Assembly (NCBI GenBank): GCA_013138975.1
Contig: WTBR01000027.1
Coordinates: 201 to 64,200, forward strand
DNA: 64,000 nucleotides
Direction: 5' to 3'
From: Bacteroidales bacterium
GTDB lineage: Bacteria > Bacteroidota > Bacteroidia > Bacteroidales > UBA12077
How positions within the stretch are numbered: position 1 is the stretch's first letter; the number at the start of each line of letters is the position of its first letter. The position numbers were made by a program, and so were the translations under genes. The notes beneath the pieces are model-generated. The model saw only the letters and a list, made by a program, of their open reading frames with translations. It was not told where the DNA came from and did not search any database. Of this stretch, positions 12,794 through 40,400 are shown one piece after another.

Positions 12794-14482
12794 TTAAACT
12801 AAATTAAAATCCCAATCTGTATCAAATAAATTGCTTGCTTTATTTATTATTTGCTTATTTCGACATTCCTTTACAACTGAATTTTCTTTTTCAAAATCAA
12901 TATAGCTTGGTACAGCATTTATATGAAGTTCTTTCCATCTCTTATCAGCATCAATTATTTCGTTCAATGAATAAGGATTAGGAATATTTAATTTCTTACA
13001 ATGTTCTATAAACCTGTTTACCCGACTATAAATTTCTTCTCTATTTGGTTCTGTATCAAGAAAATACGACTGCCCCAATAACATCTCTTTTTCATAATTA
13101 TCATATACTTCACCTATTTTGCCATTTTTTATAAAACTATCAGAACCAGACTGTCCAGTATACGAATAAATAAAGGGACAGCAATCTGCTTCATAAATAT
13201 CTTCACTTAATCTCTCTAACAGGTCCAGTGTCATTTGAAAATCTTCTTCAGTTTCACCAGGATAACCACAAATCCAATATGTTGTTGTTTTAACTCCTGC
13301 TTCAGCAAGGGATGAAATCGCAGATATTATTTCATCTATTTTTATTTTTTTATTCATTAAATCAAGTACTTTTTGAGAACCACTTTCAACTCCTATGCGT
13401 GCTCTGTAAAAACCACCCTTCCTCCATAAAAAAGAATTTTCAAGATAAGAACCATTCTTATCAACCCTAAGATACCCATCAAAATAAACAGGAGTATTTT
13501 CTTTAGCTATTTCTACTGACAGTTCCGTAATTATAGGATTTAAAAGTGAATCACACATAAGAAAAAGTTGATTCTTATGTGTTTTATACATTTCTTTTAA
13601 ATCATCTAGTACATGCTTTATATTCTTCGTTCTATATTTACCCTTATAAACTGTTTCAGAACAAAATTCACATTGCATATAACAGCTTCTTGAACCCTCA
13701 TAAGAATCTAACATGTAGAAAGATAAATCAAGATCAGAAAAATCAGGACTTTTCACATCAGAAATTGGAAATACCTCACCATCAAGATCTTTTATAGTAA
13801 AAACCCTTTTAGATTCAAGAAATTCATTTCTAAAATATTTCAATAACAATAATTCTGATTCACCTATAAAAATTTTATCAAAAATATCTTCTGTTTTTTT
13901 AAGAAAAAATTTAAAATTTGGAGAATTTAATGTCAAGTCTGAAAAAATTGAGCCTCCAATTAACGTCGTAATATAAGAAAATCTCTTTTTAATAATTCGA
14001 GCAGCAAAAAGAGAAGAAGGAAATGTATCATTGTAAACAGAAAATCCAATCGTTGTTGGTTTTTCTGTTTCAATTAAATCAATAATATATTTTTCAAAAT
14101 ATTCAAAATATTCTTTTATATAGTCATCGATTTCGTTAATTTGAAGATCATTCAATTTTGTAAAATAAGTCCTCCAAATTAACTTTCTTATTAAGTTTTT
14201 ATACCTTGCTTCATCTTTTCTATTAATAAAAGCCATCATATGATTTTTTAAAACATCATAGCCTATATTGAGAAAATTTCCTCTTTTTTGTTTTGGTATG
14301 ATTTTTTTTAAAAGCTCAAAATATAAGGAGATATACTCTTTTAGCTTTACATCAATATTTGCATCAACAATTCTAATATCATATCCATATTGTTTTAAAA
14401 AGCTTTTTAAAACTGAAATACCAGTCGGCGGTATCAATGTATCCCAAAAAGGTAACATTAAAAATATATTTTTTTCTTTCAA
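12794..14482 (-). CDS. B12-binding-domain-type (class B-like) radical SAM enzyme, stand-alone
   Basis: 562-aa ORF. N-terminal Rossmann/B12-binding-like region (FLMLPFWDTLIPPTGISVLKSFLKQYGYDIRIVDANI...TTIGFSVYND...TLIGGSIF...IFIGESELLL). CxxxCxxC motif SCYMQCEFC at 13661-13684. GFYRARIGVESGSQKVLDLMNK motif. About 45% identical by eye to the 563-aa paralogue at 23166-24857. The start in the ORF track is a TTG (14480-14482) preceded by AAAGGAG. Confidence 0.85.
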   Translation of the reverse strand: MKEKNIFLMLPFWDTLIPPTGISVLKSFLKQYGYDIRIVDANIDVKLKEYISLYFELLKKIIPKQKRGNFLNIGYDVLKNHMMAFINRKDEARYKNLIRKLIWRTYFTKLNDLQINEIDDYIKEYFEYFEKYIIDLIETEKPTTIGFSVYNDTFPSSLFAARIIKKRFSYITTLIGGSIFSDLTLNSPNFKFFLKKTEDIFDKIFIGESELLLLKYFRNEFLESKRVFTIKDLDGEVFPISDVKSPDFSDLDLSFYMLDSYEGSRSCYMQCEFCSETVYKGKYRTKNIKHVLDDLKEMYKTHKNQLFLMCDSLLNPIITELSVEIAKENTPVYFDGYLRVDKNGSYLENSFLWRKGGFYRARIGVESGSQKVLDLMNKKIKIDEIISAISSLAEAGVKTTTYWICGYPGETEEDFQMTLDLLERLSEDIYEADCCPFIYSYTGQSGSDSFIKNGKIGEVYDNYEKEMLLGQSYFLDTEPNREEIYSRVNRFIEHCKKLNIPNPYSLNEIIDADKRWKELHINAVPSYIDFEKENSVVKECRNKQIINKASNLFDTDWDFNLV

Positions 14483-14509
14483 AATACATCTCCTTTAAAA
14501 TTGATTATT

Positions 14510-17500
14510 CTATATATTAAAACCATCATCTAAATTTATATTGGTATTTACTTCTGTATACTTATGAGTAAATTTAATTTCTTCAAGCTTTCTATTTGGC
14601 GACTCAATAATTTTAGAAATTATTTCTTTTAAATAATAAGCATACTTTTCTATTGTTTGTTGCTTGAATAATTTAGAACAATAATCTATACTTATAAAAA
14701 GATTTTTCTCAAATTCCACACATGTAAATGTTATGTCAAAATGAACTTTAATTAGCTTTCCATAAATAAGTTCATCTGTATAATCATTTAATTGAGCTTG
14801 ATTTTGATTTAGAAAATTTATAATTACATCAAAAATGGGATTGTGACTTATATCTCGCTTTATCCCTAGTATATTTACTAAATCATCAAATTGATAATCC
14901 TGATTTTCAAAGGCTGAAATAGCTTTATTTCTAACATCCTTTAAGAATGAATCAAAACTTTTTTGCCCTTCAGGAAAATTTCGTAGAGGCAACATATTTA
15001 CAAACATTCCAATAACATTCTGCAAATCATTATGCCTCCTTCCACTAACACTCGTTCCTATAGTGATATCTTCTTGTCCACTCAGTTTAGATAAAAAAAT
15101 ATTAAATACTGCTAAAAGGACTATAAATAAAGTCGAATCACTTTCCCTTGCTATTTTGATAAGTTCTTTAGTTTCGTTTTCATTTAGGTAAAAACTTATA
15201 CTTGATCCTTCAAAATTTTGTACAACAGGTCGGACATAATCTGTAGGTAAGTTTAAACCTGAAAATTCTTTAACAAATTCATTTAACCAATACTCCTCCT
15301 GCTCCCTTATCTCAAATTGCTGTTTTTCTGTATTTTGCCATTCAGAATAGTCCTTATATTGTAGGTTTAAGGAGGGCAATTCTTCTCCTGAATACAATGA
15401 TTCAAATTCTTCCTTTAAGATTTTCTGCGAAGTTCCATCACTTATGATATGATGCATATCAATCATTAACAAGCTGTCTTCTCCTTTTATATCTACTATA
15501 GCTGCTCGTAAAAAAGGTGCTTTTGATAAATCAAAGGGCTTTATAAAATTATTTCGTGTGGTTTCAATTTCTGTGCTTTCTATACTTAGTTCTTCAAACT
15601 CAAACTCAACATCCCTACTTATAAGCTGAACAGCCTCACCATCAACTATAATTATGCTTGTACGGAAACTCTCATGACGATTTATTAGTTGTTTGAATAC
15701 TTCTTCTATTTTTAGCTTATCTGCCTCTTTTCCCAATGAAATTATAATGGGCATATTGTAGGCGGTTGAGGTCAAATCAATCTGCTGTAATAAGTATATC
15801 CGCTTTTGAGCAGAAGACATACTATAATTTGTCTTTTTTTCTGTCTTTAAAACTGATATAAAGAGCTTTTCATCACTTGATTTTATGTAATTAGCCTGCT
15901 GTTTGATTGTTCCATTTAGAAAAATATCTTTAAGCGAAAATTCTACTCCAATTTCTTTATGAATTGAACCCACTAATAAAATAGCTTTTAAAGAATGACC
16001 ACCTAAATTAAAAAAATTAGATGTCACACTAATTTCTTCTTGTGCTATATTTAATACTTTTGACCAAATTTCTGCGAGTTTCTCTTCTATTTCATTTGAT
16101 GGTTTTATATAATCTTCTCCAGCTTTTATTTCAGGAGTGGGTAATTTTTGTCGATCGACTTTTCCGTGATTAGTTAAAGGTAAGCCATCCATCTCAACAA
16201 AATATGAAGGGATCATATAATACGGTAAAGATTCTAGTAAATACTCACGAAGTTTTTCTTGATTAAAATTTTCTGCACATACTAAATATGCACAAAGAAA
16301 CTTATCATCATTTTCTTCCATGGCTAATACAATGCATTCTTTTACATTATTGAAACTGAGTAAGACATTTTCAATTTCTCCCAGTTCTATCCTGAAACCA
16401 CGAATTTTCACTTGCTCATCCACTCTTCCAATATATTCAATATTACCATCTGGTAACCATCTTGCCAAATCTCCTGTTCTATAAATTCTCTCGTTGTTCT
16501 TAAATGGATTTAAAATGAATTTTTCATTATCTAGTTCTGACTTGTTCATATATCCTCGTGCCAAACCAATGCCTCCTATACATAATTCACCGATAACTCC
16601 AATAGCAGATAACTTTAGATTTTTTGATAATATGTATATGGCTGTATTGTCTATTGGTTTACCTATAGGAATAGTCCTGCTTTTATCAACATCTTTACAA
16701 TCATAATATGTAACATCTATGGTTGCTTCGGTTGGACCATATAAATTTGAAATATTAATTTGTTTATTAAATTTGAATAATTCATTGAACTTCAACACAT
16801 CTTCTTTTCTTAATGCTTCTCCACTGCATATTACATGTCTAAGAAATAATAATTCCTCTGTATTATTTCCAAAATCTGATTCCAATACAATCAAAAACGT
16901 TTTTAACATAGATGGAACAAAATGAATTATTGAAACTTTACTATCAGCAATTGCTTTTATAATTTTTCTAGGTTCTTTTTCAGCTTCTGGTTCCAGTAAT
17001 ATTAATTTCGATCCACATATTGCCCATAATAACAATTCCCATACTGAAACATCAAATGTATATGGAGTTTTTTGGATAAAAATATCATCAGAAGAAACAT
17101 TATAGTAGTTCTTCATCCAACTTAACCTGTTAACCAATGACCGGCTCTCAATCATGGCTCCCTTGGGTCTGCCTGTGGTTCCAGATGTGTATATTATATA
17201 TTCTAATCTATTCCTTGTTGTTTGTTTACTATCTTTCTTAATATTAATATTTTCTTTATGCTCTATTTCATTTTCCAAGTATAAAGTATCAACTTTTATA
17301 ATAATACCTTTTGAATCCTTTTGGGTTGTAAGTAAAATTTCAGACTTACAGTCATTTAGAATATAATTAATTCTGTCTTTTGGATCTTTTGGTGAAATTG
17401 GTAAATAGACCCCTCCAGCTTTTAAAATTCCGAAAATCCCTACTAGCATTTCAATAGATCTATTTACCATTATTGGAACTACTTTATTTTCCTTTACACC

Positions 17501-19024
17501 CTTATTTATTAATACTGATGCTAGTAAATCTGTTTTCAATGCAAATTCGTGGTAAGTTAATTTAATACCATTAAACTCTAGAGCTTCATAATATGGATTT
17601 ACATTTACCTGATCGTCAAATAAATCAATTATATTTTTTACTTTTGAAATATCCTTTTCTGTATTATTGAATTCATATAACAATCGTTGTTTCTCGCTCT
17701 CTGTAATAAAATCAATATTTTGAATTTTGCAATTTACATCGTTGACAATCTTTTTAATTACAGCCTTTAATTGAGAAGCAAGGCTTTCTATAAACTCAGT
17801 ATTATAGTATTTTAAATCGTAATTAAATCTAATCTTATAATTTTTACCTGGAACTATTGCTATCCAAAAATTATAATTAGTTTGCTCATAAGTCTTAATC
17901 TTATTAGCTCTTAAATCAAAATCGGCTTTGTTTTCTTGCAGATATTCATTATTAATAATTGGATAATTTTCATATACCATAATATGATTAATGAATTCTC
18001 CTTTAACATTAGAATATGTCTTTATTTCTGATAAAAGAAGATATTCATATGCTTTTGCATCATTACTTTTTGCTTGATTCTCTAATAATACCTCTAAAAA
18101 TGTTTGATCATTGTTTGACTTTACTCTACATGGAATAGTATTAATACATAAACCAACCATCCTTTCTATTCCTTTTATTTCTGATGGCCTACCAGACACA
18201 ACAACTCCAAAAACCACGTCATTAGTATTATTATAGTTTTGTAAAACTATACCCCAAAGACTTTGGAAAAAAGTATTTGTCGTAACACTATTCTCTTTTG
18301 CAATCTTTTCTATTTCTAGTGAATATTGTTCATCTAATTCAAGAGTTATTTCTTTAGGGTTTAAAGGTTCGTTAGTATCATTATTCTTTAAAAGGGGCAA
18401 ATTCCCAACACCCTCATATCCATTCAGATAATCTTTCCAAAAATTTAATCCATTTTGCTTATTTTGTTTTCCAATCCAATCAATAAAATTAGAATATGGA
18501 ACAACATTGGATAAATTTAATTTAATAGATTTTTTTAAAGAATAGTATATTTGAAATAACTCCTGAAGTATTAATCCTAAGCACCATCCATCCATTATAA
18601 TATGATGAAATTCTAATATAATCCAATAAGATTCATTTTCTTTTTGAATTACTGTTAACTGAAACAATATATCCTTAGATAAATCAAATCCTATATTTCT
18701 GTTTTCACAACTATATTTATGCAGTTCTTGCTTCTTTTTTTCTATATGCAATTTTGAAAAATCTACAAACTTAACATCAAGACTGCGTTCTTTAACTACA
18801 ACCTGTATTGGTTTCTCTACATCCTGATATATAAAAACAGTCCTAAAAATATCATATCGTTCAATTAATTTATTATAACTTATATTTATTAAATTGATAT
18901 CTAATTCACCATTTAGCTCATAAACTGTTTGTTCAAAATATGCCTGGCTATTAGGATCCTCAATATGATGAAATAGCATCCCTAATTGCAGTGGGGACAA
19001 AGGATATATTTTTTTTATTTCCAT
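14510..19024 (-). CDS. NRPS subunit: C(DCL-type)-A(Ser-like code)-T-C(LCL-type)
   Basis: 1504-aa ORF. The N-terminus MEIKKIYPLSPLQLGMLFHH resembles a COM acceptor. C1 EFHHIIMDGWC (HH 18602-18607). A motifs YIIYTSGTTGRPKGA (~17160-17200), FDVSVWE, IIHFVPSML, VICSGEAL and NLYGPTEATIDV give the code DVWHISLIDK (Ser-like). T FFNLGGHSLKA (Ser 15992-15994). C2 MHHIISDGTS (HH 15449-15454). The protein ends ...NLDDGFNI. Confidence 0.92.
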   Translation of the reverse strand: MEIKKIYPLSPLQLGMLFHHIEDPNSQAYFEQTVYELNGELDINLINISYNKLIERYDIFRTVFIYQDVEKPIQVVVKERSLDVKFVDFSKLHIEKKKQELHKYSCENRNIGFDLSKDILFQLTVIQKENESYWIILEFHHIIMDGWCLGLILQELFQIYYSLKKSIKLNLSNVVPYSNFIDWIGKQNKQNGLNFWKDYLNGYEGVGNLPLLKNNDTNEPLNPKEITLELDEQYSLEIEKIAKENSVTTNTFFQSLWGIVLQNYNNTNDVVFGVVVSGRPSEIKGIERMVGLCINTIPCRVKSNNDQTFLEVLLENQAKSNDAKAYEYLLLSEIKTYSNVKGEFINHIMVYENYPIINNEYLQENKADFDLRANKIKTYEQTNYNFWIAIVPGKNYKIRFNYDLKYYNTEFIESLASQLKAVIKKIVNDVNCKIQNIDFITESEKQRLLYEFNNTEKDISKVKNIIDLFDDQVNVNPYYEALEFNGIKLTYHEFALKTDLLASVLINKGVKENKVVPIMVNRSIEMLVGIFGILKAGGVYLPISPKDPKDRINYILNDCKSEILLTTQKDSKGIIIKVDTLYLENEIEHKENINIKKDSKQTTRNRLEYIIYTSGTTGRPKGAMIESRSLVNRLSWMKNYYNVSSDDIFIQKTPYTFDVSVWELLLWAICGSKLILLEPEAEKEPRKIIKAIADSKVSIIHFVPSMLKTFLIVLESDFGNNTEELLFLRHVICSGEALRKEDVLKFNELFKFNKQINISNLYGPTEATIDVTYYDCKDVDKSRTIPIGKPIDNTAIYILSKNLKLSAIGVIGELCIGGIGLARGYMNKSELDNEKFILNPFKNNERIYRTGDLARWLPDGNIEYIGRVDEQVKIRGFRIELGEIENVLLSFNNVKECIVLAMEENDDKFLCAYLVCAENFNQEKLREYLLESLPYYMIPSYFVEMDGLPLTNHGKVDRQKLPTPEIKAGEDYIKPSNEIEEKLAEIWSKVLNIAQEEISVTSNFFNLGGHSLKAILLVGSIHKEIGVEFSLKDIFLNGTIKQQANYIKSSDEKLFISVLKTEKKTNYSMSSAQKRIYLLQQIDLTSTAYNMPIIISLGKEADKLKIEEVFKQLINRHESFRTSIIIVDGEAVQLISRDVEFEFEELSIESTEIETTRNNFIKPFDLSKAPFLRAAIVDIKGEDSLLMIDMHHIISDGTSQKILKEEFESLYSGEELPSLNLQYKDYSEWQNTEKQQFEIREQEEYWLNEFVKEFSGLNLPTDYVRPVVQNFEGSSISFYLNENETKELIKIARESDSTLFIVLLAVFNIFLSKLSGQEDITIGTSVSGRRHNDLQNVIGMFVNMLPLRNFPEGQKSFDSFLKDVRNKAISAFENQDYQFDDLVNILGIKRDISHNPIFDVIINFLNQNQAQLNDYTDELIYGKLIKVHFDITFTCVEFEKNLFISIDYCSKLFKQQTIEKYAYYLKEIISKIIESPNRKLEEIKFTHKYTEVNTNINLDDGFNI

Positions 19025-19043
19025 GGTAGAATTATTTATATAT

Positions 19044-22000
19044 TTAAATTTTATTTATAAGATTTTCAATCTGACCTAATTCTTCAATTGATAAATCATT
19101 ATATCCAACATCATTTGGTGTTATTTCTATTTTATCTTTATTACAACAATGATCAATAATTTCGATTAATGATTTTTCAAATTCTTTAGAAAGTCTTTTA
19201 ATCGTTTCTTTTTTGAACTCCAAGCCATTGAACTCCATTGAAAATGTAAAAACACCATTCATTAAAATACTGTTAATTTCCAATAAACCATTTCTTTCAC
19301 ATTCATCAGATATCTTTTTCCCAGAATCAATTTTCGAAATAGTAATGTCCTCCTTTGTTAATTCTTTAGAAAACTCCCCTAAATAATTGAAATTAATTTG
19401 AGGTTGATTATTAAAACTAACTTCCCGGTCCTTTGATGTTAAATATTGAAGTATTCCATAACCTATACCCTTATTAGGAATTTTTCTTAATGTTTCCTTA
19501 ATAAATTTAATATTATATGATAAATCAGAATTTTCAACATCCAATACAACAGGATATTGAGAAGTAAACCAACCAACTGTGCGTGAGACATTTACTTCTT
19601 TTAAAATATCTTCTCGACCATGACCTTCCAGGCTAATCAGAACCTTATTTATTTTTTGCCATTTTTTAATAGCTAACGCTAATGCTGTAAGCAATATATC
19701 GTTTATTTCTGTATTATATGCCTTGTTTACTTTGTACAATAACTTATCTGTATATTCTTTATTAATTTTAAGATATTCTACAGAAGTATTTTTTCTTTTA
19801 TTATCTATTTTTTCAATCTTGAAATCTGACACTAATTCCCTTGTATTTGTTTCGTCAATTTTTTTCCAGTAGTCCAGTTCTTCCAAAAGTTCATTACTAT
19901 TAGCGTAATCATTAAGTCTTTCTGACCAATATTTAAACGAATCAGTTTTATGTTTAAGTTTAATTTCTTTGTTTTGCAAAGCTAATTCATAAGCAGTAGT
20001 AAAATCTTCTATTATAATCCTCCATGAAACACTATCTATTACGCTATGATGAATTGTAATTAACACATGATCACCTTCCTTTACATTGAAAAGTCCTACT
20101 TTAACTAGAGGGCCGTTTTCTAAATCAATTGATTTCTGAATCATGTCACATTCTTTTTCAATCAATTCAACATGATCTTTCTTATCAGTAAAATCAAATG
20201 TATATAGATCGTAAAATGGTTCTAAAACAGGTCTATTATATTGTATAGTTTTATTGTTTTGTTTTGGGAAAATCATTCTTAAAGCATCATGGTGTTTAAC
20301 AATTGTGTCAAATGTTTTTTTCAAAGCTGGAATATTAATTTTATCCTTAGTAAAAAACATCACAGACTGATTAAAGTGATTAATATCAGTTAAAAAATTA
20401 TTGAAATACCAATACGTTACAGGGGTAAATAATACTTCTCCTTCTATAGTATCTTGAGGAATTATCCTATCAATTTTTGTTACAATGTCTTTTAATTCTG
20501 ATATTCTAGGATGGACAAACATATCTTTAATTTCTAACTTTAAACCCAGTTCCTGAGCATTACTAGAAATTTGTATTGCCTTTATTGAATCACCACCAAT
20601 CATGAAAAAATTATCATTAATTCCTATTCTTTCAACGTTCAATACTTTTTGATATATATCTACTAATATTCTCTCAGTCTCATCTCTTGGAGCTATATAA
20701 TCCTCAGAAGCTAATATTTCCGGTTCTGGTAACGCTCTCCTGTTCACTTTACCACTTTCTGTAAAAGGGATACTATCAATTTTGACAAAATAAATTGGTA
20801 TCATATAATCTGGCAAACTCTTTGAAAGATGTTCTTTTATTTCATGAAAAGATAACTCCTCTAATGAAACATAGTATGTACATAGGTATTTATCTTCGTT
20901 TAAATGTGTGCGTTCAATAACTATTGCATCATCAATTTTAGGATGATTTATTAAACACAATTCTACTTCTCTTAATTCAATCCTAAATCCCCTTATTTTT
21001 ACTTGTTGATCTTTTCTGTTAACAAACTCAATATTTCCATCAGGCAACCATTTTGCAATATCCCCTGTTTTATATAATCTTTCGTTTATTTCAAAATTAT
21101 TTGGAATAAATCTTTGATTAGTAAGTTCAATATCATTTAAATATTTCCTTGCTAATCCCACACCAGAGATGCATAATTCACCTTCTATTCCAATGGGTTG
21201 TAATCTTCCATTATTATTTAAAATATAAACTTTTTTATTTTCAATTGGTTTCCCAATTACTGGAGTTTTGGATGGATGTGAAGTAGGTAGTAATTCAGCA
21301 AATGTTGTCCAAACAGTATCTTCAGTTGGACCATACAGATTATATATTTTAAATGGATATTCTCTTAATGGATTTCTTCTAAAACAATCTCCTGCTGCCC
21401 TTATAGCTTTCAATGAAGATCTTTTCCCACTCCATTCATCCTCGAGTAATTTTTCGACCATATAAGTAGGTTGATATGAGATATTTACATGATTTTTAAT
21501 TAGCCACTTTTTCATTTTAAAAGGATCTTTCTGAATTTCATCATTTGCGATACACAAATTTCCCCCAGAAGTCAAACAAGGCCATATTTCAAATGACATA
21601 GCATCAAAACTGCAACTGGAAACCTGACTCATCCTTGAATTATGATCATTTTTAAAAATCCTTTTGTGGGATTGCACCATATTTACACATCCTTTATTTT
21701 CAATCAGAACTCCTTTAGGTTTTCCTGTTGAACCTGATGTGTAAATTATATATAACAAAGATTCAGGTTTATTATCATTATTGCCATTTTCTTTAAATTT
21801 GTTTTGAAATTCTAAGTCTTCAAATAAAAGAGTATCTTTATTAACAGAACCAGTTAAGTATTGATTTTCTGTAATTAAGATCTTTGCATCACTGTCATTT
21901 AAAATAAATTCTATTCTTTTTTCCGGATAATTTTTATCAATTGTTAAATAAGCTCCGCCAGCTTTTATGGTTCCAAGAATACTAACCAGCATATCTATAG

Positions 22001-22997
22001 ATCTATCTAATAAAATAGCTACAATAGATTCAGATTTTATTCCCTTTTCGCTTAAAATATTAGCTAATTGATTTGTTCTTTTATTTAATTCAGAAAATGT
22101 AATCTTCAAATCTCCATATTCGCAAGCAATTCTTTCTGGGTTTTTGGAAACCTGTTCATTAAATAATTCAATAATTGTTTTATCTGGAATATTGCAGTTT
22201 AATGTACCACTAAAATCATTTAAAACCTTGCTTTTTTCATTATCAGATAATAAATCTACTTCCGAAATTTTAACATCCAAATTAAATATAACTTGCTCCA
22301 ATAATCTATTAAAATGGCCTATTATTCTTTTAATTGTGCTTCTCTCATATAAAGATGAATTATATGAAAATTCTCCATATAACTCATTCCCTCTATTACT
22401 GAATATCAATTTAGTATTTAGTATTATATCTTTAAGATATTTCTCCTCATGAATATTTGAAAGTAATAATGCATTTGAAAATAATGGAAACTCTTTCTCA
22501 TTTGTAGAAAGATCTAATTTATATAATAATGAATCTATAGAGTAATTTTGATTTTCTATGTCCTTTATAAAATCTTCTCGCACCTTCAATAGAAACTCCT
22601 TAAACGTTAATTCTAAATTTATTTTATTTCGAAGTGCCAAAATAGTATTAACAAAATCACCATCAATATCTTGTTTCAAAACAGTTGTACCTATAATAAT
22701 ATCATTATTCGATGTATATTTCTCGATTAAAATATTCATTCCTGCCAATAATATCATATAAAGTCTAAAATCAGAATTATTGCTCAACTTAACTAACCTT
22801 TCATAAACTTCTCCTCCAATAACTAATGTTTCAATTTCTATTTGAGGATCAGTCTTCTTTTCTATCTTAAAATCATACGGGAAATATGATTTTGTTAGTT
22901 CTCCTGAAAACTTATTTAACCAATATTTTTCTTCTTTTGATCGATTATAAGTGTTGTTATTCTTATCTTCTAAATTATCTTTTTTCGCCATTTTCAA
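19044..22997 (-). CDS. NRPS subunit: half-C-A(unassigned code)-T-E
   Basis: 1317-aa ORF (the ATG two codons downstream of the TTG is an equally plausible start). N-terminal C-lobe only (EKYWLNKFSGEL..., DIIIGTTVL, FVNTILALRN, ENQNYS, PLFSNALL). A motifs IKAGGAYLTID and YIIYTSGSTGKPKGV (~21715-21760). T FFMIGGDSIKAIQ (Ser 20586-20588). E ITIHHSVIDSVSWRI (HH 20046-20051). The C-terminal tail ...LSIEELGQIENLINKI resembles a COM donor. Confidence 0.92.
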   Translation of the reverse strand: MKMAKKDNLEDKNNNTYNRSKEEKYWLNKFSGELTKSYFPYDFKIEKKTDPQIEIETLVIGGEVYERLVKLSNNSDFRLYMILLAGMNILIEKYTSNNDIIIGTTVLKQDIDGDFVNTILALRNKINLELTFKEFLLKVREDFIKDIENQNYSIDSLLYKLDLSTNEKEFPLFSNALLLSNIHEEKYLKDIILNTKLIFSNRGNELYGEFSYNSSLYERSTIKRIIGHFNRLLEQVIFNLDVKISEVDLLSDNEKSKVLNDFSGTLNCNIPDKTIIELFNEQVSKNPERIACEYGDLKITFSELNKRTNQLANILSEKGIKSESIVAILLDRSIDMLVSILGTIKAGGAYLTIDKNYPEKRIEFILNDSDAKILITENQYLTGSVNKDTLLFEDLEFQNKFKENGNNDNKPESLLYIIYTSGSTGKPKGVLIENKGCVNMVQSHKRIFKNDHNSRMSQVSSCSFDAMSFEIWPCLTSGGNLCIANDEIQKDPFKMKKWLIKNHVNISYQPTYMVEKLLEDEWSGKRSSLKAIRAAGDCFRRNPLREYPFKIYNLYGPTEDTVWTTFAELLPTSHPSKTPVIGKPIENKKVYILNNNGRLQPIGIEGELCISGVGLARKYLNDIELTNQRFIPNNFEINERLYKTGDIAKWLPDGNIEFVNRKDQQVKIRGFRIELREVELCLINHPKIDDAIVIERTHLNEDKYLCTYYVSLEELSFHEIKEHLSKSLPDYMIPIYFVKIDSIPFTESGKVNRRALPEPEILASEDYIAPRDETERILVDIYQKVLNVERIGINDNFFMIGGDSIKAIQISSNAQELGLKLEIKDMFVHPRISELKDIVTKIDRIIPQDTIEGEVLFTPVTYWYFNNFLTDINHFNQSVMFFTKDKINIPALKKTFDTIVKHHDALRMIFPKQNNKTIQYNRPVLEPFYDLYTFDFTDKKDHVELIEKECDMIQKSIDLENGPLVKVGLFNVKEGDHVLITIHHSVIDSVSWRIIIEDFTTAYELALQNKEIKLKHKTDSFKYWSERLNDYANSNELLEELDYWKKIDETNTRELVSDFKIEKIDNKRKNTSVEYLKINKEYTDKLLYKVNKAYNTEINDILLTALALAIKKWQKINKVLISLEGHGREDILKEVNVSRTVGWFTSQYPVVLDVENSDLSYNIKFIKETLRKIPNKGIGYGILQYLTSKDREVSFNNQPQINFNYLGEFSKELTKEDITISKIDSGKKISDECERNGLLEINSILMNGVFTFSMEFNGLEFKKETIKRLSKEFEKSLIEIIDHCCNKDKIEITPNDVGYNDLSIEELGQIENLINKI
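22278..22997 (-). other. N-terminal truncated condensation domain (C-terminal lobe only)
   Basis: Aligns with the region from the (E)YWL motif onward of full C domains in this window (for example C2 of the 1504-aa subunit: EEYWLNEF...DITIGTSVSGR...FVNMLPLRN...ENQDYQFDDL...PIFDV). No HHxxxDG. The upstream intergenic gap is only 168 nt. Confidence 0.7.
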
Positions 22998-32632: not shown

Positions 32633-32661
32633 ATTTAAAATAATTTAAGTGCTAAAATCTG

Positions 32662-35600
32662 TTAAGCATCAAATAAAGAATCTAATTCGTTTTGAGATAT
32701 CTCTTTGTAAGTAAAGTCACTTGGCGAATATTCTCGGTCATCTTTATTTAAACAAAAATTTATAATGTTATTTAGGCTTACATTAAAGTTTTGTATTAAG
32801 TTATTAATTACTGAATCAGAGAACTCTTTTTTACTGAATGTAGCACTAATTTCTAATCTATCTTTTATAATTATTCCTGTAAATCCAAGTTTAAATTGTC
32901 TTTTTTCATTATAATTTAGTAAATCCCCCATGTTTTCATACGATACTTTAAATGGCAAATTGCTTATATCTTCACCAAACTGCCCTAAGTAATTGAAAAA
33001 GATTTCTGGCAAAACAGTAGTACTATTATTATCTTTTTTCTCTGGAGTTGTTAAAAAGTTTAATATACCATAACCAATACCTTTATTAGGAATTTTATGT
33101 AAGTTTTCCTTAACGTTTTTTATGTGATCCGATAAATCATTAGATTCTTCAACATCAATAAAAATTGGAAATAATGATGTAAACCAACCCGTAGTTCTAC
33201 TTAAGTTTAATTCCTTAAAAATATCTTCTCTGCCATGCCCTTCCATTGCAATTGCTATTTTTTGCATTTTGAAAGTTTTGTTTAATCCTAAGCATAAACC
33301 CGTGATAAGTATATCATTTATATTTGTTCCAAAAGCATTATTTACTTTTGTTTTTAAATGGTGAGTAGTTTCTTTTGAAAGTGAAAAAGATATAGATCTT
33401 GAATCCAAAACACCGCTCTGTTCACTATTATTAATGTCTAATTTAATGGGATGAATTAAAGGTTTACTATTCCAATAATCAATTTGTTTAGAAAATTCTT
33501 CAGAATTAGCATAATCCTTTAATTTCTTTGCCCACAATCCGTATGAGGTTTCTTCTGAAATTATCTCTAGTTTTTCTTTGTTCATATACTGTTCATACAA
33601 CATTCCCATATCTTCCATAAGAATTCTCCACGATACTGTATCAATTGCCAGATGGTGAATAACGATAAGTATTCGGGTTTCTTTATGCAAATGAAATAAT
33701 CCAATTTTCATCATCGGACCTTTCCCCAAATCTATTCCTTGCTGGATAATGTTGGATTTTTCTTTTATATATTCCTCTGTATTTTCACATCCAACACAGT
33801 CAAATTTCAACAAAGATAAAGGAAGATCTCCTGAGAGAATTTCCGGTTGTATTATCCCATTAACATTTTTATATACCGTTTTTAAGCTATCATGTGTATT
33901 TTGAATTTTAAAAAACATTTCCGTTACCATTTTTTCGTCTAAAAAACCTTCTTTCGAAATAACAATTGATTGATTGAAATGATTTTTATGAATAATATGA
34001 TTACTGAAAAAATATTCTTGTATAGGAGTTAATGGTATTTTACCAACCATTTTAGAATTTGTGGTCTTTTTTATATTATGTAATATCTTAGATAAGTCTC
34101 TAATTGTTGGATATTCAAAAATATCTTTTATTTTTATTTGGTATCCCTCTCTATTTATTTTTGAAATCAACTGAATTGATTTTATTGAATCTCCGCCCAA
34201 TCTAAAAAAACTATCATCAATTCCCACTCCTTCTATTCCGAGTGTAGATTCATAAATATTAATGAGCATCTGATCACGATCGTTTCTTGGGGGCACATAT
34301 GTATCTTTTTTCAATAAATTTGGTAATGGCAAAGCCTTTTTATCCACTTTCCCATTAGAAGTTAAAGGAAAAACATCAAGTTTTGTAAAAAAAGCAGGAA
34401 TCATATATGTCGGAAGTTCATTTAATAGTTGGCTTTTTAAAACTTCCTCGTCAATTTGTAAATTTGAGAGATAATAAGCACTTATATATTTATCACCATG
34501 TGCATTGTATTTAATTGATACGGCGACATCTTTTATATCAACAAATTCCCTAATACGTTTTTCTATTTCGCTGAGCTCTATTCTATAACCTCTAATTTTA
34601 ACTTGCTCATCTTTTCTTCCTAAAAATTCAATATTACCATCATCTAACCAACTAACGATATCTCCAGTTTTATAGATAATATCATTATTCAAATAAGGGT
34701 TTTCTATAAAATTAGTTGATGTTAATTCCGGATTATTTAGATATCCTTTTGCAATTCCTATTCCTCCCAAACACATTTCCGCTGCAACACCTTTAGGTAC
34801 CAATTTTTCATTTCGAGGATCTAGAATATAAACTTTTGCGTTTGATATCGGTTTTCCAATTGGTATATTTTTAGAGTTTTTTTCTACTTTAAAACTTGTA
34901 CTTACAACTGTTCCTTCTGTTGGTCCATAATTATTAAATAATTCGTATGTAGAATTGATAGTTTGTAGTTTATCTCCTCCTGTAAGCAAACACCTTAAGT
35001 AATTTCCTTCTGAATTTTGAATAAACTGCTCACATATTGGAGTTGGTAAAAAGCTTATAGTTATTCCTCTTTTTTTAAATGTTTTATGAAGTAGATCAAC
35101 TTCCAATTTTATAGATTTATCTATTAATAAGATAGAAGATCCTTTTATTAAGTAAGGAAAAATCTCCCATACAGAAGCGTCAAATCCCAAACCTGCATAT
35201 TGAGTTGTTTTATCAAGGCTAGAAACTTCATAATAATCATTATGCCAGTGACATAAATTTGCTAATGACTCATGGCCAATTATCACACCTTTTGGAGTTC
35301 CAGTTGTTCCAGATGTATACGTTATGTAAGCCACGCTATTTTTATCATAATTTACAATTACATCATGATTTTTGTGTTTATTCAGTACTGATAAATCGTG
35401 TCTATTTTTATTCCTTTTAACATTTTTCTGAGTAATATTATTTTTATCAATCTTTAAAATTACATCATAACGATATTTTGTAAGTTCATTTTCTATACAA
35501 AATATCTTATCTGAGAACTGAATATTATTAATTTCGGAAAAATCAATAAATAAATCATTAAAAAACTGACGAGATAAAAATAATTCTTCTGAAAAACTTA

Positions 35601-37398
35601 ATTTTGTTCTATAGTCTTTATCTTCATTATTCTTTTTAAAATTTATTAAATCCTGTATCATTCTATCTTTCTGTTCCAGATCCATTATATCTCCCAGAAA
35701 TATCAATCCTTTGTTGCCTGTTAGTTTTATACAGCTTTTTATTACATTCCTTAAATAATTATGACCATGAAAAGCTTGAATAACACTATTTATAATAATT
35801 ATATCAAAATCATTTTCCAGTATTTTCTCAATATCATGAGCGGGCAAGCATTCTAATTTGATATTAACAATTTTATTTTTTACAATATATTCCCTATTCC
35901 AATCTAGAATACTTTCAGATAAATCTGTTCCATAATATGATTTCACTTTAGGAGAAATTCTGTACATACTGATACCAGAAGCACAACCAATTTCTAAAAC
36001 TTTAATGTTTTCATTTAAATATGGATCTATTTTTTTTAATACGTTATCACCATACTCATCCATTTCATCTCTGGAAAAAGGTTTACCTGTAAAACTATTT
36101 AACCAACCTCCTCCTGTTATATCATCTATTGCATTTTCACCTACATGTTCCCAAAGTTCCTTATTCATTAAATTACTTTTATCACTTTCTTCAACAGCAT
36201 CTATATCATAGGTATCTGTACATAAAAATGTTTCTAAACAATTGCATTGCCATTGCAACCTGTTTAAAAGCCTTATATGCATTTTTTGAGAAATGACAAT
36301 ACGAATATTAGCATCATCTATCATGAATTTCAACCTGTTCTCTGGCAAATCAGTAGGAAGAGGGACAAACGCACCTCCTGACTTTAAAATACCAATAAGT
36401 GCAACCATTCGGTCATATTCACTATCCATTAAAACTCCAACAGGTTGATTTTTTGATAATTTATGTTCATCAATTAGATAATTGGCCAATTTATTAGAAT
36501 CTGAATTTAACTGAGTATAGGTCCAAAAATTATTATTCTTTATGATTGCAATATTATCTGGAGTTTTTAACAATTGATCATAAAACAACTTTACCCAATT
36601 TTCATTATCTGAATGTTTAATCTTGTTTTCATTTAGCACAGTCACTAACTCATTCTTTTCAAATTCATTTAGAAAATCAATTTCATTAATAGTTAATTCA
36701 TCAGGATTAGCTAATCCTATTTCGAGAATATTAATGTAATGATTTACAATTTTATCAATTCTTCTTTCATTATATAATTGTGGATCATATTCGATATTTA
36801 ATTCCAGATTCTCTGATTCACGAAAAAAAGAAAAAATAAAATTTGACTTTATGGAATTTAAAGATTTTCTATCATGTATATTTTCTAATAAAATACTAAC
36901 AGAAACTAACTCTTTAGTAAAATTCTTATTTTGTTTTAAAAAAGCTATTACCGGAAAATTCTGATTCTTAGTAGCTTCAATGATTAATTGTTTTGTTTTT
37001 ATTAACAAACTTTTAAATGTTTCATCCTCATCAATTCGGTTTCTCACAATTAAGATTGAATTTAGAGCTTCTTTTAATTCTTTACGTTCAAGTACAGGAC
37101 AAGTAATACTTATATCATTTTTTCCTGAGTATCTATACAGTAAGATATTTAATATATTAGTAAGAATAGTAAATAACAAATGATCAGAATTATTACTTAA
37201 TTTAAAAATCTTCTCAGTAATTGTTTCATTAAATATGAACTGTTTCAGTTGCAAAGAATCTGAACTTTTATAAGAATTTCTGAGAAAACTACTAAATAAA
37301 AAATCCCCTGAAAGTACATTTTTCCAAAATTCCTTTTCTTGTTTTTTTTCACTAATCACCAATAAATCATTACCCATGTTATTTTCACTTTTCATCAT
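32662..37398 (-). CDS. NRPS subunit: half-C-A(Leu-like code, interrupted by a class I SAM methyltransferase between a2 and a3)-T-E
   Basis: 1578-aa ORF. N-terminal C-lobe only (EKEFWKNVLSGDF..., NDISITCPVL, KNQNFPV). a2 ILKSGGAFVP (~36361-36395). MT motif VLEIGCASG at 35974-36000, preceded by ELWEHVGENAIDDITGGGWLNSFTGKPFSRDEMDEYGD. a3 AYITYTSGTTGTPKGV (~35286-35331). Code DAW(S/F)LGNVVK. T FFRLGGDSIKS (Ser 34186-34188). E IVIHHLAIDTVSWRI (HH 33652-33657). COM-donor-like tail ...ISQNELDSLFDA. Confidence 0.92.
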   Translation of the reverse strand: MMKSENNMGNDLLVISEKKQEKEFWKNVLSGDFLFSSFLRNSYKSSDSLQLKQFIFNETITEKIFKLSNNSDHLLFTILTNILNILLYRYSGKNDISITCPVLERKELKEALNSILIVRNRIDEDETFKSLLIKTKQLIIEATKNQNFPVIAFLKQNKNFTKELVSVSILLENIHDRKSLNSIKSNFIFSFFRESENLELNIEYDPQLYNERRIDKIVNHYINILEIGLANPDELTINEIDFLNEFEKNELVTVLNENKIKHSDNENWVKLFYDQLLKTPDNIAIIKNNNFWTYTQLNSDSNKLANYLIDEHKLSKNQPVGVLMDSEYDRMVALIGILKSGGAFVPLPTDLPENRLKFMIDDANIRIVISQKMHIRLLNRLQWQCNCLETFLCTDTYDIDAVEESDKSNLMNKELWEHVGENAIDDITGGGWLNSFTGKPFSRDEMDEYGDNVLKKIDPYLNENIKVLEIGCASGISMYRISPKVKSYYGTDLSESILDWNREYIVKNKIVNIKLECLPAHDIEKILENDFDIIIINSVIQAFHGHNYLRNVIKSCIKLTGNKGLIFLGDIMDLEQKDRMIQDLINFKKNNEDKDYRTKLSFSEELFLSRQFFNDLFIDFSEINNIQFSDKIFCIENELTKYRYDVILKIDKNNITQKNVKRNKNRHDLSVLNKHKNHDVIVNYDKNSVAYITYTSGTTGTPKGVIIGHESLANLCHWHNDYYEVSSLDKTTQYAGLGFDASVWEIFPYLIKGSSILLIDKSIKLEVDLLHKTFKKRGITISFLPTPICEQFIQNSEGNYLRCLLTGGDKLQTINSTYELFNNYGPTEGTVVSTSFKVEKNSKNIPIGKPISNAKVYILDPRNEKLVPKGVAAEMCLGGIGIAKGYLNNPELTSTNFIENPYLNNDIIYKTGDIVSWLDDGNIEFLGRKDEQVKIRGYRIELSEIEKRIREFVDIKDVAVSIKYNAHGDKYISAYYLSNLQIDEEVLKSQLLNELPTYMIPAFFTKLDVFPLTSNGKVDKKALPLPNLLKKDTYVPPRNDRDQMLINIYESTLGIEGVGIDDSFFRLGGDSIKSIQLISKINREGYQIKIKDIFEYPTIRDLSKILHNIKKTTNSKMVGKIPLTPIQEYFFSNHIIHKNHFNQSIVISKEGFLDEKMVTEMFFKIQNTHDSLKTVYKNVNGIIQPEILSGDLPLSLLKFDCVGCENTEEYIKEKSNIIQQGIDLGKGPMMKIGLFHLHKETRILIVIHHLAIDTVSWRILMEDMGMLYEQYMNKEKLEIISEETSYGLWAKKLKDYANSEEFSKQIDYWNSKPLIHPIKLDINNSEQSGVLDSRSISFSLSKETTHHLKTKVNNAFGTNINDILITGLCLGLNKTFKMQKIAIAMEGHGREDIFKELNLSRTTGWFTSLFPIFIDVEESNDLSDHIKNVKENLHKIPNKGIGYGILNFLTTPEKKDNNSTTVLPEIFFNYLGQFGEDISNLPFKVSYENMGDLLNYNEKRQFKLGFTGIIIKDRLEISATFSKKEFSDSVINNLIQNFNVSLNNIINFCLNKDDREYSPSDFTYKEISQNELDSLFDA
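35420..36180 (-). other. Embedded class I SAM-dependent methyltransferase (NRPS M-domain type) in the a2-a3 loop
   Basis: The a2-to-a3 spacing is ~345 aa, against ~68 aa in uninterrupted A domains of this window. SAM-binding motif VLEIGCASG. The W..S..G.P....EM.E motif is typical of NRPS M domains. Confidence 0.8.
36703..37398 (-). other. N-terminal truncated condensation domain (C-terminal lobe only)
   Basis: Residues ~15-232 are homologous to the other two half-C regions and to the C-terminal halves of full C domains. There is no HHxxxDG. The upstream gap is 80 nt. Confidence 0.7.
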
Positions 37399-37478
37399 TC
37401 ACAAAAATTATTTATCAAGACATTTATACTATAGATATCTCACAGTAAAAATTAATTTTTAGTATTAAGTGTATTAAT

Positions 37479-40400
37479 CTAAAAAGAGAAGTTCGAATCT
37501 GAAAAAGATGAATCACTTACTATCATTTCTGTTGATAGCTTTATATCCTTCAGTAAAATATTTTTATCCTCAATAACCTGATTAAAAATCTTTTCTAAAT
37601 AATTTCCAATCTGCTCTATAAACAATTGCGAATAAGCATTTTTATTATATTTAAAAGATACTACCATTTCATCTTCATCAAATATTCTAATATCCATATC
37701 ATAATTTGTTGGATCAGAAATTTCAATTTTGTCAACTTTAATTTCGTTATTGGCTGAATTGTATAAATTAGTATCAGAAATATCTAATTTCTGATAATTT
37801 TGAAATCCCAAAATATGATCAAAAAGTTTTTCTTCAGAGGATTTCATCTTATTAATTTTATCTAATGGGAAATGGTGATGAATTTCACTTTCTAAAGCTT
37901 TTGACTGAATCTTTTTAATCAATTCAATAAAACTAGATTCTAGTTCTAATTGAATTCTTACTGGAATTGTATTAATAAATAATCCTAAAATTGATTCTAC
38001 TCCACTAATTTCAGAGGATCTACCTGAAACAACTATTCCAAATATAACATCTAATTTATCATTAAGCTTTGAAAGCAATAATCCCCACACTGCATGAAAT
38101 AATGTATTTAGTGTTACTTGAGCATTATTAGAAATCTGTTTTAAAATCGTTGTATTTTGATTTCCAAGAGAAATCTTATAATTCCCTTCATCATAAGCGA
38201 TCAATTCAGGTTCTGTTTTCTTATAATGTGATAGACTAGAGTTTTGTTTAAAGCCATCTAAATATTTACTCCAAAATTGTTCACTTTCGTTACTTTCAAG
38301 TTTATTAATCCATTTAATATAGTTTTTGTATTGTGTTGGATGTTCTAGACTAATTTTTCTACCAAGAGTTAATTGCCCATAAATCTCAGTTAATTCTTTT
38401 ACAATAATTCCAATACACCATCCGTCCATTAAAATATGATGAAAACTCCATACTAACTTATAATTTTGTTCAGCAGTTTTAAAAACATATACTCTCATTA
38501 GAACGTCCTTGCTTAAATCAAATGATTTTTCCTTATCATTCTTCATCAATTTATCGATCAATAATTCTTTCTCATTTTTATCATATATTTCAGTCAAATC
38601 TTGATAATTAAATTCAATTTTTCGTTCTTTTAAAACAACTTGCAAAGGAAGATCAACGTTTTCGTGAACAAATACAGTTCTTAATATATCATGTCTTTCA
38701 ATAATTTTATTAAAACTATTTCTTAGAACTTCGATTTTTAGATCCCCAGAAAGTGGTATCACAGATTGAATATTATATGAAGGAGATGTTTCGTATAATG
38801 AATGAAATAAAATACCTTCTTGTAATGGTGCTAACCTATAAATATCTTCAATATCAAATTTTGCACTTAAGTGATCCAGATCGTGAATGGGTAATCCCTT
38901 ATAAGTTAAATCTGATGGTGTTAATATTTTATCAGGAACATTAATGCAATGACTTATAATATCTTCCAAAGACTTCTGGTAATTATTAAGTAAGCTAAGA
39001 ACAAATTCCTCAGTGTAATATTTCTTCTTATAATTAAGAGAAATTGATAATTTACCACCTGCAAGTATACAAATGACTGAAAAATCCGAATTTGTAGTTC
39101 TATTTAAACTAACTGAATCACCGCTACTTTCATCTGCCATTCTAAACTTAGTCATTTGTGCAACATCTGAGTCAAATTGACCTAAGTAGTTGAACTCAAC
39201 ACCCATTTTATCATCAAACTGCATATCTTCCTTTAATTCTTCTGGCGTTAAGTATTTTAGAATACCATAACCAATCCCTTTTTGAGGCACTTGACGCAAG
39301 CTCTCTTTAACTTGTCTTAATTGTAATGATAGGTTATCTATTTGTCTCACATCAAGCAATACAGGATAAGCAGATGTAAACCAACCAATTGTTCTACTTA
39401 CATCAATATCTGGAAAAATATCTTCGCGACCGTGTCCTTCAAGATAAACAAGTACTTTTTCATTACCAAAAGTTTTTCGAATACTAGAACCTAATCCACA
39501 AAGAAGAATATCATTTATTTCTGTTCCATACGCTTGGTTTGTTTGAGTTATTAACTGAGTAGTTGTTTTCTCATCAAGAGAAAACTGCATGCTCGCTCTT
39601 TCGTTAATTTTTATATTTTCATGATTAAGATCTCGTTTTAACGGTAAAACCTCTTGATTAACAATTTCATTCCAAAATTCTTTTTGTTTTAGAATCTGAT
39701 CACTTTCTGCATATTTTGTTAATTTTTCAGACCAATCTTTAAATGAGTTGTTTTTTAATGGTAATGAAAGTGCTTGTCCTTTTTTTGCTTGTTCGTAAAG
39801 CATTTCTATATCTTCAAATATAATTCTCCATGAAACTCCATCAGTTACAAGATGGTGAATTACAATTAATAATCTATCTCCATCATCTAAGTGAAATAAT
39901 CCTAACTTCATTAGCGGTTCATTTTCTAAATCTATTGATCTTTGAATTTGATTAGCATAAGCTGTTAATTTCTCTTTAGCTTCACTCTCACCTTCAAGAT
40001 TGTATATGTTAAGTGAGATTGGAAAATCTTCTATTCCTTTATTATATAAACTAAAGCTTCCCTTATTTCTTTTACTTACAATTCTTAAAGCATCATGATG
40101 ATCCTGTAGTTTTCTAAATACCTCTTTTAAAATATTCTCATCAATTCTTTCTTCTGAAAACAACATTACGGACTGATTAAAATGGTGCATATCAATTTGA
40201 TTTTCAAAGAAAAAATGCTGTATAGGAGTTGGCTTAATATCACCACTTACATTATCTTGTGAAACTTCCTTTGTTTTCAATTTTACCTTAGTTGCCAAAC
40301 ATGAAATAGTTGGATTTTCAAATATTTCATTAACTCTAATAAGATAACCTTTCTCACTCATTTTTGCTTGTAACTGAATCGCTTTTATTGAATCACAACC

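Follow-up and report, generated by a model that had tools for sequence, protein, structure and literature searches.

How the subunits of a nonribosomal peptide synthetase (NRPS), and the enzymes acting on them in trans, find the right module is central for understanding and engineering these assembly lines. Docking codes are known for junctions between a carrier (T) and a condensation (C) domain and between an epimerisation (E) and a C domain. To our knowledge nothing is established for splits between a C domain and an adenylation (A) domain. Here we describe a short C-terminal tail at such junctions in a 64,000 nt stretch from a Bacteroidales bacterium (GenBank assembly GCA_013138975.1, contig WTBR01000027.1, positions 201 to 64,200; hereafter the window). 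The tail is carried by three NRPS subunits and by two stand-alone B12-binding radical S-adenosylmethionine (rSAM) enzymes, encoded upstream of NRPS subunits that start with only the C-terminal lobe of a C domain, in the following called half-C. Altogether three kinds of subunit junction occur in the cluster: T/TubC_N-C, E/C with COM-like ends, and C/half-C-A with or without an enzyme in between. C-terminal sequences are given up to the stop codon throughout.

The communication-mediating (COM) pairs of NRPS, reportedly going back to Hahn and Stachelhaus, resemble this system in that short terminal peptides order separate synthetase subunits. COM-like ends are also found at the E/C junctions of the window (...NELDSLFDA and ...ELGQIENLINKI). 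COM donors, however, are located behind E domains, their partner being the N-terminus of a complete C domain, whereas the tail described here follows a complete C domain or a non-NRPS enzyme and the putative acceptor is devoid of N-lobe and HHxxxDG motif. The sequences are unrelated and the tail also occurs on non-NRPS proteins, which sets it apart from a COM donor. Docking by a short linear motif (SLiM) and a beta-hairpin of the TubC_N type is known from TubC, the rhabdopeptide/PAX and the enacyloxin systems. The likeness lies in a C-terminal linear motif that is, or here would be, recognised by the N-terminal part of the protein that follows, and in the case of enacyloxin such docking recruits a trans-acting enzyme. 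The window employs TubC_N docking at three other junctions. TubC_N (PF18563) is present on the 2156-, 2914- and 2447-aa proteins of the window but not on the three half-C subunits, which lack the ~50 aa TubC_N fold. The tails of the TubC_N partners (...EDIEVLL, ...IENFEL and ...YDEIEI) differ from the GDFxF type.

In glycopeptide NRPS the X domain recruits the Oxy P450s, and interface (I) domains serve beta-hydroxylases. The half-C resembles an X domain as a dead member of the C superfamily within the assembly line and as a proposed landing platform for trans-acting tailoring enzymes; moreover PDB entry 4TX3, which we take to be an X domain, is among the Foldseek results for the half-C model. 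X and I domains are of full length with both lobes and lie internally, and the P450 binds by a folded surface. The half-C in contrast is a single lobe at the N-terminus, the partners carry a C-terminal tag that would serve subunit docking as well, and the enzymes are oxygen-independent (B12-rSAM and Peptidase_U32 family). While the degeneracy of the half-C is evident, we infer its role as an X-domain-type platform for enzymes from gene order and the shared tail. Exchange units of the XUC type and truncated C-lobe remnants in front of A domains, e.g. the Lys2-type N-terminus, are a further parallel. The half-C likewise starts at the hinge between N- and C-lobe and stays attached to the A domain, and the Lys2-type N-terminus was matched in the NCBIfam comparison. 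It differs by being a family-wide conserved N-terminal feature with a leader of fixed length and with tailed partners, and is seemingly more than a structural support of the A domain. With CysS (cystobactamid) and DscE (discodermin) the locus shares a B12-rSAM in an NRPS cluster with a likely C-methylation of unactivated carbons; in contrast, neither of the two is known to have a docking tail or a partner of the half-C kind. The substrate of DscE is the free peptide after release, and NRPS with rSAM C-methyltransferase was called an 'unusual enzyme combination' in 2025 (PMC12858407). The tail, its pairing with a half-C and the intercalated rSAM and U32 enzymes are not described in the literature searched, outside of which lie most subscription journals. 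Taken together the system functions in the manner of known devices for docking and recruitment in NRPS but lacks the defining features of each.

The tails had been noticed on five proteins in a first-pass annotation of the window, and translation places all of them exactly there (all minus strand):

37482-37502, minus strand: tail SDSNFSF of the 2914-aa NRPS, directly before the 1578-aa half-C subunit
24962-24979, minus strand: tail FGEFQF of the 2557-aa NRPS, before the 563-aa rSAM
23169-23186, minus strand: tail EGDFSF of the 563-aa rSAM, the canonical form of the motif
14513-14530, minus strand: tail DDGFNI of the 1504-aa NRPS, before the 562-aa rSAM
12797-12817, minus strand: tail DWDFNLV of the 562-aa B12-rSAM

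The motif is thus found on five of the twelve protein termini of the window, and the other seven are indeed unlike it. The pattern formulated in the first-pass annotation occurs at 20 of 20,996 positions in the window proteins, corresponding to P ~2e-11 (post hoc) for at least five of twelve termini. The caution voiced there that chance could not be excluded is no longer warranted in view of this value and of the conservation described below. The statement that every protein preceding a half-C carries the tail holds for both rSAMs and the 2914-aa NRPS. The 2557- and 1504-aa synthetases however precede rSAM genes, and among the upstream synthetases only the 2914-aa NRPS directly adjoins a half-C subunit. 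Within a junction the tails match each other (GFNI with DFNLV, EFQF with DFSF). The consensus of the tail reads acidic-acidic-G-D-[F/W]-x-[F/L/I]-COOH.

Conservation of the tails in homologues, which the first-pass annotation had named as a check on its proposal, is clearly found. The 563-aa rSAM has more than 1300 homologues at E <=1e-10, many of them named as proteins of Candidatus Aminicenantes metagenome-assembled genomes (MAGs). Of the best 120 (50-58% identity) 114 end in the tail, and ~90% of the 120 have it in the form [DE][DE]-G-D-[FW]-x-F-COOH. Gly is conserved in 83-88%, Asp in 82%, Phe in 91% (otherwise Trp) and the last Phe in 90%, and in ~90% of these 120 homologues the chain stops directly after the motif. 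The tails of the upstream NRPS show a similar picture (D 76%, F 90%, F 78%) and are terminal in 85%.

Metagenome contigs were scanned using the family-specific C-terminal region of the rSAM, which resulted in 80 loci (individual loci are designated L plus number). The loci L004-L083, which came from the full-length alignment of the rSAM, contained only remote rSAMs (~25% identity) and were left aside. In about 60 metagenome loci the same order recurs, namely an NRPS with full C domain and tail, a tailed rSAM and a half-C NRPS; it is also present in an Aminicenantes MAG (L001) and in another assembly (L003). The last HHxxxD motif of the upstream synthetases lies 318-333 aa ahead of the stop and the proteins end in ...[DE]x(G)DFxF, the rSAMs in ...GDFxF. 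Among C-terminated NRPSs upstream of an rSAM 25 of 29 carry the tail, as do 56 of 60 rSAMs upstream of a half-C. Subunits preceding a full C or E start have it in at most one of 19 cases, and its strict form is absent from all 484 open reading frames (ORFs) on the opposite strand of the same loci.

In the tail Gly is encoded by each of its four codons and Phe by both of its codons. This synonymous variation indicates selection on the protein rather than on a DNA signal. The distance from the tail to the next start codon varies from ~20 to more than 160 nt. The 20-40 residues ahead of the tail are unlike between the protein classes, while the positions of the tail itself are conserved to 76-100%. 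As is typical of a SLiM, a core of 6-7 residues lies in a disordered region and is conserved amid differing flanks. Judged by these comparisons, the tail is a selected, portable SLiM that is tied to the C/half-C junction.

The first-pass annotation had called the upstream synthetase C-terminated. Pfam matches and motifs reveal that the C domain at the end of all three is complete and not a half one; the half is found at the start of the downstream subunits:

37530-38849, minus strand: complete terminal C domain of the 2914-aa NRPS, which bears the tail (Pfam Condensation 2-448 of 456; HHILMD)
25022-26302, minus strand: complete terminal C domain of the 2557-aa NRPS (Pfam Condensation 2-447 of 456; HHIITD)
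14564-15835, minus strand: complete terminal C domain of the 1504-aa NRPS (Pfam Condensation; HHIISD)
36643-37398, minus strand: half-C, N-terminus of the 1578-aa NRPS, no HHxxxDG (Condensation 191-456; YW at residue 23)
22224-22997, minus strand: half-C, N-terminus of the 1317-aa NRPS, downstream of the 563-aa rSAM (Condensation 190-455)
12014-12769, minus strand: half-C, N-terminus of the 855-aa NRPS, downstream of the 562-aa rSAM (Condensation 188-456)

In the three synthetases ending in C the HHxxxD motif is located ~319 aa upstream of the stop. The half-Cs cover only profile positions 188-456 of 456 and have no HHxxxD within their first 250 residues. They hence do not form a two-lobed C domain, the N-lobe with HHxxxDG being absent, but have the fold of the C-terminal lobe and the C-A linker, including an LLxxFNxT linker of their own. 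The Condensation match begins at residue 10-18 in all three subunits and only ~22 residues precede the C-lobe. AlphaFold2 with an alignment folds the half-C of the 1317-aa protein at a predicted local distance difference test (pLDDT) score of 85-98. Foldseek matches this model to the C domains of TycC6, DhbF, Txo1 and LgrA (2JGP, 5U89, 6P3I and 6MG0; 255-275 columns, E 1e-16 to 1e-18).

In the loci the half-C-first N-terminus follows the pattern M-x(9-11)-phi-A-A-x-Q-x-x-K-E-R-x-Y-W-L-x-K-L-S-G; the N-terminal helix of the 855-aa half-C is a variant with QYGKEKRYW. A HMMER scan of 1.84 billion representatives with the window half-C as query gave 35,588 proteins at an E-value of 1e-3 or below. 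A half-C stands at the start of 92 of the best 150, and the distance from the start Met to YW has its mode at 22 residues. Neither among these 150 nor in the loci did we find an internal half-C or a tailed protein fused to a half-C. The strict separation of half-C subunits together with the conserved free C-terminus of their partners suggests that the terminal carboxylate of the tail matters.

Two further arrangements were considered and set aside. The half-Cs start just after the expected C4 position, and the tail might supply the C4 donor strand (YxD[FY]xxW) of a split C domain; the upstream C domain is however complete, the spacing differs and structure prediction lent no support. Read-through or fusion of rSAM and half-C is rejected. 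The spacers 12770-12793 and 14483-14509 are in frame with both neighbours but contain two to three stop codons each and give no sign of read-through, and no natural fusion was found in the loci or the 150 representative NRPSs.

The tail is not restricted to one enzyme family. It appears independently on NRPS ends, on three B12-rSAM families and on Peptidase_U32-family proteins, in all cases at C/half-C junctions, as expected for a SLiM. A type-2 B12-rSAM is 24% identical to the window enzyme over the core, shows no similarity in the C-terminal 130 residues and nevertheless ends in ...EANFDF or ...EADFDF (L167, L142). A type-3 B12-rSAM carries the tail as well (L170, L153). Three Peptidase_U32-family proteins (Pfam) ending in ...GDFDF are located between a C-terminated NRPS and a half-C NRPS:

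L170, 16921-18087: Peptidase_U32-family protein
L105, 573-1784: Peptidase_U32-family protein
L100, 455-1711: Peptidase_U32-family protein

The family includes oxygen-independent hydroxylases such as UbiU/UbiV, RlhA and TrhP. By analogy, its presence at these junctions suggests anaerobic hydroxylation on NRPS lines. At least four enzyme families that are unrelated, or related only distantly, have gained the tail at this one genomic position.

Conversely, loci looked up via half-C-first proteins of the representative search show the tail also where no rSAM is encoded between the subunits. In L172 a PKS-NRPS (polyketide synthase-NRPS hybrid) ending in ...EQGDFLF is directly followed by a half-C, with no rSAM in the fetched flanks of 6-8 kb, and direct junctions of NRPS and half-C with tail also exist in L085 and L088. 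Likewise L166 has no rSAM in the fetched 6-8 kb flanks; here an NRPS ending in ...LEVQFNI is followed by a beta-lactamase/TPR protein without tail and then a half-C. In L167 the order is NRPS (...DVSFNI), PanD and half-C, with tailed rSAMs at later junctions. The FNI ending of these two loci is that of the 1504-aa NRPS. In L168 and L169 both intercalated rSAMs are without tail, and the synthetases keep ...QVEFDF and ...DEGDFNF. The occurrence of the tail without rSAM and on unrelated enzymes marks it as a tag of the C/half-C junction and not of one enzyme family. The sequence comparisons hence support a tail that tracks the half-C junction rather than the rSAM.

Several occupants of the junction deserve mention. 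The tail-less B12-rSAMs (L168, 632-2239 and 6256-7938; L169) comprise one of type 2 and one of type 1, and the latter stops right after the LHKNAVP region. The tail-less beta-lactamase-fold/TPR protein of L166 (4250-5767) has a signal-peptide-like N-terminus, and the equally tail-less PanD of L167 (7577-7930) is an aspartate decarboxylase. L089 (8555-12081) contains two tandem type-1 rSAM genes before one half-C; the first has an internal DEGEFGF and a 14-residue extension, the second ends in VEDFAF.

Based on this analysis we propose, with a probability of roughly 0.6, that the tail marks proteins that must engage an NRPS subunit starting with a catalytically dead half-C fused to an A domain. 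In the upstream synthetase a flexible stretch of ~20 residues would connect the complete C domain to the tail. The tail would anchor this C domain to the downstream half-C-A-T module and so bring its acceptor site within reach of the downstream carrier domain. Enzymes with genes between those of the subunits, here two B12-rSAMs and elsewhere other B12-rSAM families and Peptidase_U32-family proteins, would in turn use the same anchor point via the same tail. They would thereby gain access to the carrier-bound amino acid or peptide at that very module ahead of condensation. Most likely the 22 conserved residues at the N-terminus of the half-C and the helix there (phi-A-A-x-Q-x-x-K-E-R-x-Y-W) take part in the contact. 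In L170 four tailed partners in a row (NRPS, rSAM, rSAM and U32) precede one half-C, for which time-sharing is the simplest reading.

Covariation bears on the receptor. Besides the Phe form a rarer Trp form of the tail exists (rSAM ...GDWF, NRPS ...DDWxL). At a given junction both tails tend to be of the same form (Fisher P = 0.009, uncorrected for phylogeny) and resemble each other, FN[IL] going with FNL, [DE]FxF with DFSF and W with W. A single one of the 262 half-C columns sets loci with two Trp tails apart from those with two Phe tails, namely the residue five before YW. This residue is Gly in the Trp-type and I, T or L in the Phe-type loci (e.g. QYGKEREYW versus QNIKERDYW). The Gly/Trp pairing arose independently at least twice, L104 being unrelated to the other Trp loci. 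The prediction was tested on two further half-Cs with YGKE, of which P0182 goes with Trp and P0241 with Phe; the proteins upstream of P0182 both have Trp tails (...DWILG and ...DDDDWL), and the prediction was confirmed in L170. Trp-type tails are only found with Gly at this position (7 of 7). Trp always occurring with Gly, but Gly not always with Trp, would fit a size-compensating contact and points to the N-terminal helix of the half-C. The half-C is a plausible receptor of the tail, this one covarying position being the sole positive hint.

The interaction was also modelled in cis. The last 45 residues of the 563-aa rSAM were fused to the first 262 of the 1317-aa protein and folded using AlphaFold2 with 33 alignment rows. 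The half-C folds confidently, while tail, linker and the first 13 half-C residues show pLDDT <50. The predicted disorder of tail and linker is as expected for a linear motif. A chimera of tail and half-C folded from the single sequence reached a mean pLDDT of 37 only. Homologue searches with the half-C alone gave nothing usable, and that for a chimera alignment one match; they were replaced by the representative search. An alignment with unpaired tail rows, in which MAFFT put the tail EGDFGF on the ERDYWL of the half-C (e.g. window 22930-22997), was discarded. Both elements have the pattern acid-x-acid-aromatic-x-hydrophobic, which may be chance or a hint of mimicry.

Some observations speak against the half-C as anchor point. 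The cis fusion predicts no docking, residues 1-58 having pLDDT <50. With the fusion in cis and only three sequences covering the tail columns this is a weak negative. Of the shared docking tail postulated in the first-pass annotation, the linear motif common to C-terminated synthetases and trans-acting enzymes has therefore stood up, whereas its placement on the half-C was not reproduced by this model. The covariation is one-way, Gly being also found with Phe tails (L130, L134, L146, L172), and goes back to two or three independent events. Where as many as four tailed partners face a half-C (L170), exchange or several sites would be needed, and the proposal does not account for the orthogonality of the three junctions of the cluster, whose tails are so alike.

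Part of this could be accommodated by a docking motif with a receptor other than the half-C, be it the A core or carrier domain in the downstream module, the terminal C domain upstream or a hub protein. The failure of AlphaFold2 to place the tail on the half-C would agree with this, several tails per junction (L170) fit more easily with more than one site, and in L168 a C-only protein with the tail-like end DNADFL precedes an A-first subunit without half-C. However, half-C-first subunits co-occur almost invariably with tails across the loci, the sole covarying position sits in the N-terminal helix of the half-C, and no candidate hub gene recurs. We consider such a receptor unlikely, though deserving of attention.

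Alternatively each tail may bind the next protein in a daisy chain or oligomer, or plug its own active site in an autoinhibitory manner. The gene order is strictly collinear, and enzymes encoded in a row are each tailed (L170, L089), as a chain would predict. It would however require a receptor for the tail on four different folds. Moreover tails are found at direct junctions of NRPS and half-C (2914 to 1578 aa in the window, L172, L085, L088) and tail-less rSAMs occupy the same position in L168, which makes this explanation improbable.

The tail could further be an evolutionary stub of the C-A linker LLxDFNxT that arose by the splitting of modules, persists because it stabilises the terminal C domain and has no role in trans. 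NRPS tails of the window clade end in FNI or FNL about where DFNxT of the linker would sit, and the retention of an own LLxxFNxT by the half-C subunits would suit a stub as well. But the tail is also present on three B12-rSAM families and on U32-family proteins, which all lack a C-A linker, in 85-90% of cases the chain ends freely right behind the second aromatic residue, and the tails covary within a junction; the stub has a slim prospect at best. Chance, recent paralogy or a nucleotide signal such as a ribosome-binding site, suggested by the shortness of the motif and by the resemblance of GGAGAT (Gly-Asp) to a Shine-Dalgarno sequence, is of negligible probability given the P value within the window, the retention across hundreds of proteins at 50% identity and in unrelated families, and the use of different codons at varying distances from the following start, which rule out a ribosome-binding site.

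What reaction the tailed rSAMs would bring to the docking site can be narrowed down. Both enzymes of the window contain PF02310 and PF04055 and the CxxxCxxC motifs CPFQCSFC and CYMQCEFC, as in class B rSAMs. No NCBIfam model reaches its cut-off (best 89-110 bits versus cut-offs of 282-600); the nearest models are BchE, PhpK and a RiPP (peptide made on the ribosome and modified after translation) C-methyltransferase, and the closest solved structures match the core only. By these profile comparisons, the stand-alone rSAMs are an uncharacterised family. Some members contain an additional CDGSH-type iron-sulfur domain (PF09360; P0050, P0052, P0072, P0100, P0007; L170, 13169-14974), and P0085 (932 aa) a tRNA-methyltransferase-like domain (PF03054). 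Several of the domain-extended members have a few residues after the GDFGF motif.

The specificity residues of the A domains were taken by motif anchors and read against published Stachelhaus codes, and the assignments are approximate. Modules after an rSAM of this family have diverse codes: DLTKIGEVGK/DFTKIGEVGK, which we take as Asn-like (including the module of the 855-aa NRPS), DAQDI..V.K, presumably Gln-like, as well as DAFxLGGTFK and DLTKVGHIGK, which we read as Val-like and Asp-like. B12-rSAM enzymes C-methylate such residue types in ribosomal peptides of the polytheonamide type. This match renders C-methylation the most likely reaction. By analogy, the rSAMs probably C-methylate carrier-bound Asn, Gln, Val or similar residues.

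The window has a G+C content of ~27% and contains 12 large ORFs, all on the minus strand. They are listed in order of transcription, the architectures being derived from Pfam matches and motif positions:

52687-63948, minus strand: NRPS, 3753 aa
46220-52690, minus strand: 2156-aa protein, TubC_N start
37479-46223, minus strand: NRPS, 2914 aa, TubC_N-C-A(interrupted)-T-E-C
32662-37398, minus strand: NRPS, 1578 aa, half-C-A(methyltransferase)-T-E
24959-32632, minus strand: NRPS, 2557 aa, C at the end
23166-24857, minus strand: stand-alone B12-binding rSAM, 563 aa (Pfam B12-binding and Radical_SAM)
19044-22997, minus strand: NRPS, 1317 aa, half-C-A-T-E
14510-19024, minus strand: NRPS, 1504 aa, C at the end
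12794-14482, minus strand: second stand-alone B12-binding rSAM, 562 aa, 43% identical to the 563-aa rSAM
10202-12769, minus strand: NRPS, 855 aa, half-C-A-T
2795-10138, minus strand: 2447-aa protein, TubC_N start
271-2643, minus strand: FtsX/MacB-type permease, 790 aa

The junction from the 2914- to the 1578-aa NRPS is direct, a tailed NRPS being followed by the half-C with no rSAM gene between, and is the sole tailed junction of this kind in the window. The A domain behind the half-C of the 1578-aa NRPS (32662-37398) is interrupted by a class I methyltransferase (aa 454-583) upstream of motif A3. In the 2914-aa NRPS the first A domain (aa ~640-1140) has an embedded rSAM domain followed by a B12-binding domain, i.e. 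in permuted order, as well as a SAM methyltransferase insert between motifs A8 and A10. This embedded rSAM domain is only 21% identical to the stand-alone rSAMs, and an architecture starting with C-A(rSAM) is also present in two related loci (L167, 25176-27313; L170, 1-4218). The 2447-aa protein (2795-10138) consists of TubC_N-C, a short N-terminal A fragment, Acyl_transf_1, a carrier domain and two C-type domains. Here a PKS-type acyltransferase seems to replace most of an A domain.

In a wider sense the tail and the half-C may constitute a universal plug-in for on-line tailoring of nonribosomal peptides in anaerobic, mostly uncultivated bacteria (Aminicenantes and others), the dead half-C reading GDFxF-COOH and delivering any tagged protein to the carrier-bound substrate of its module, be it the preceding synthetase, a B12-rSAM of one of several families or a U32-family enzyme, the latter probably akin to oxygen-independent hydroxylases. 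We put this forward tentatively, at a little under even odds. If true, it would be an oxygen-free counterpart of the recruitment of P450s by X domains and would provide a transferable docking pair for NRPS engineering. With its 7 residues and a receptor of ~250 aa, such a tag would be an appealing building block for directing enzymes to modules of choice. The scale is considerable, with more than 1300 clusters of rSAM homologues and a half-C-first start in the majority of the best 150 half-C representatives. The tail would moreover predict the module that an intercalated enzyme modifies and thereby improve structure prediction for orphan clusters of uncultivated anaerobes. For the biology of these bacteria our data point to oxygen-independent on-line tailoring in nonribosomal synthesis by B12-rSAMs and the U32 family, where the modifications would be such as are otherwise seen in ribosomal peptides like the polytheonamides.

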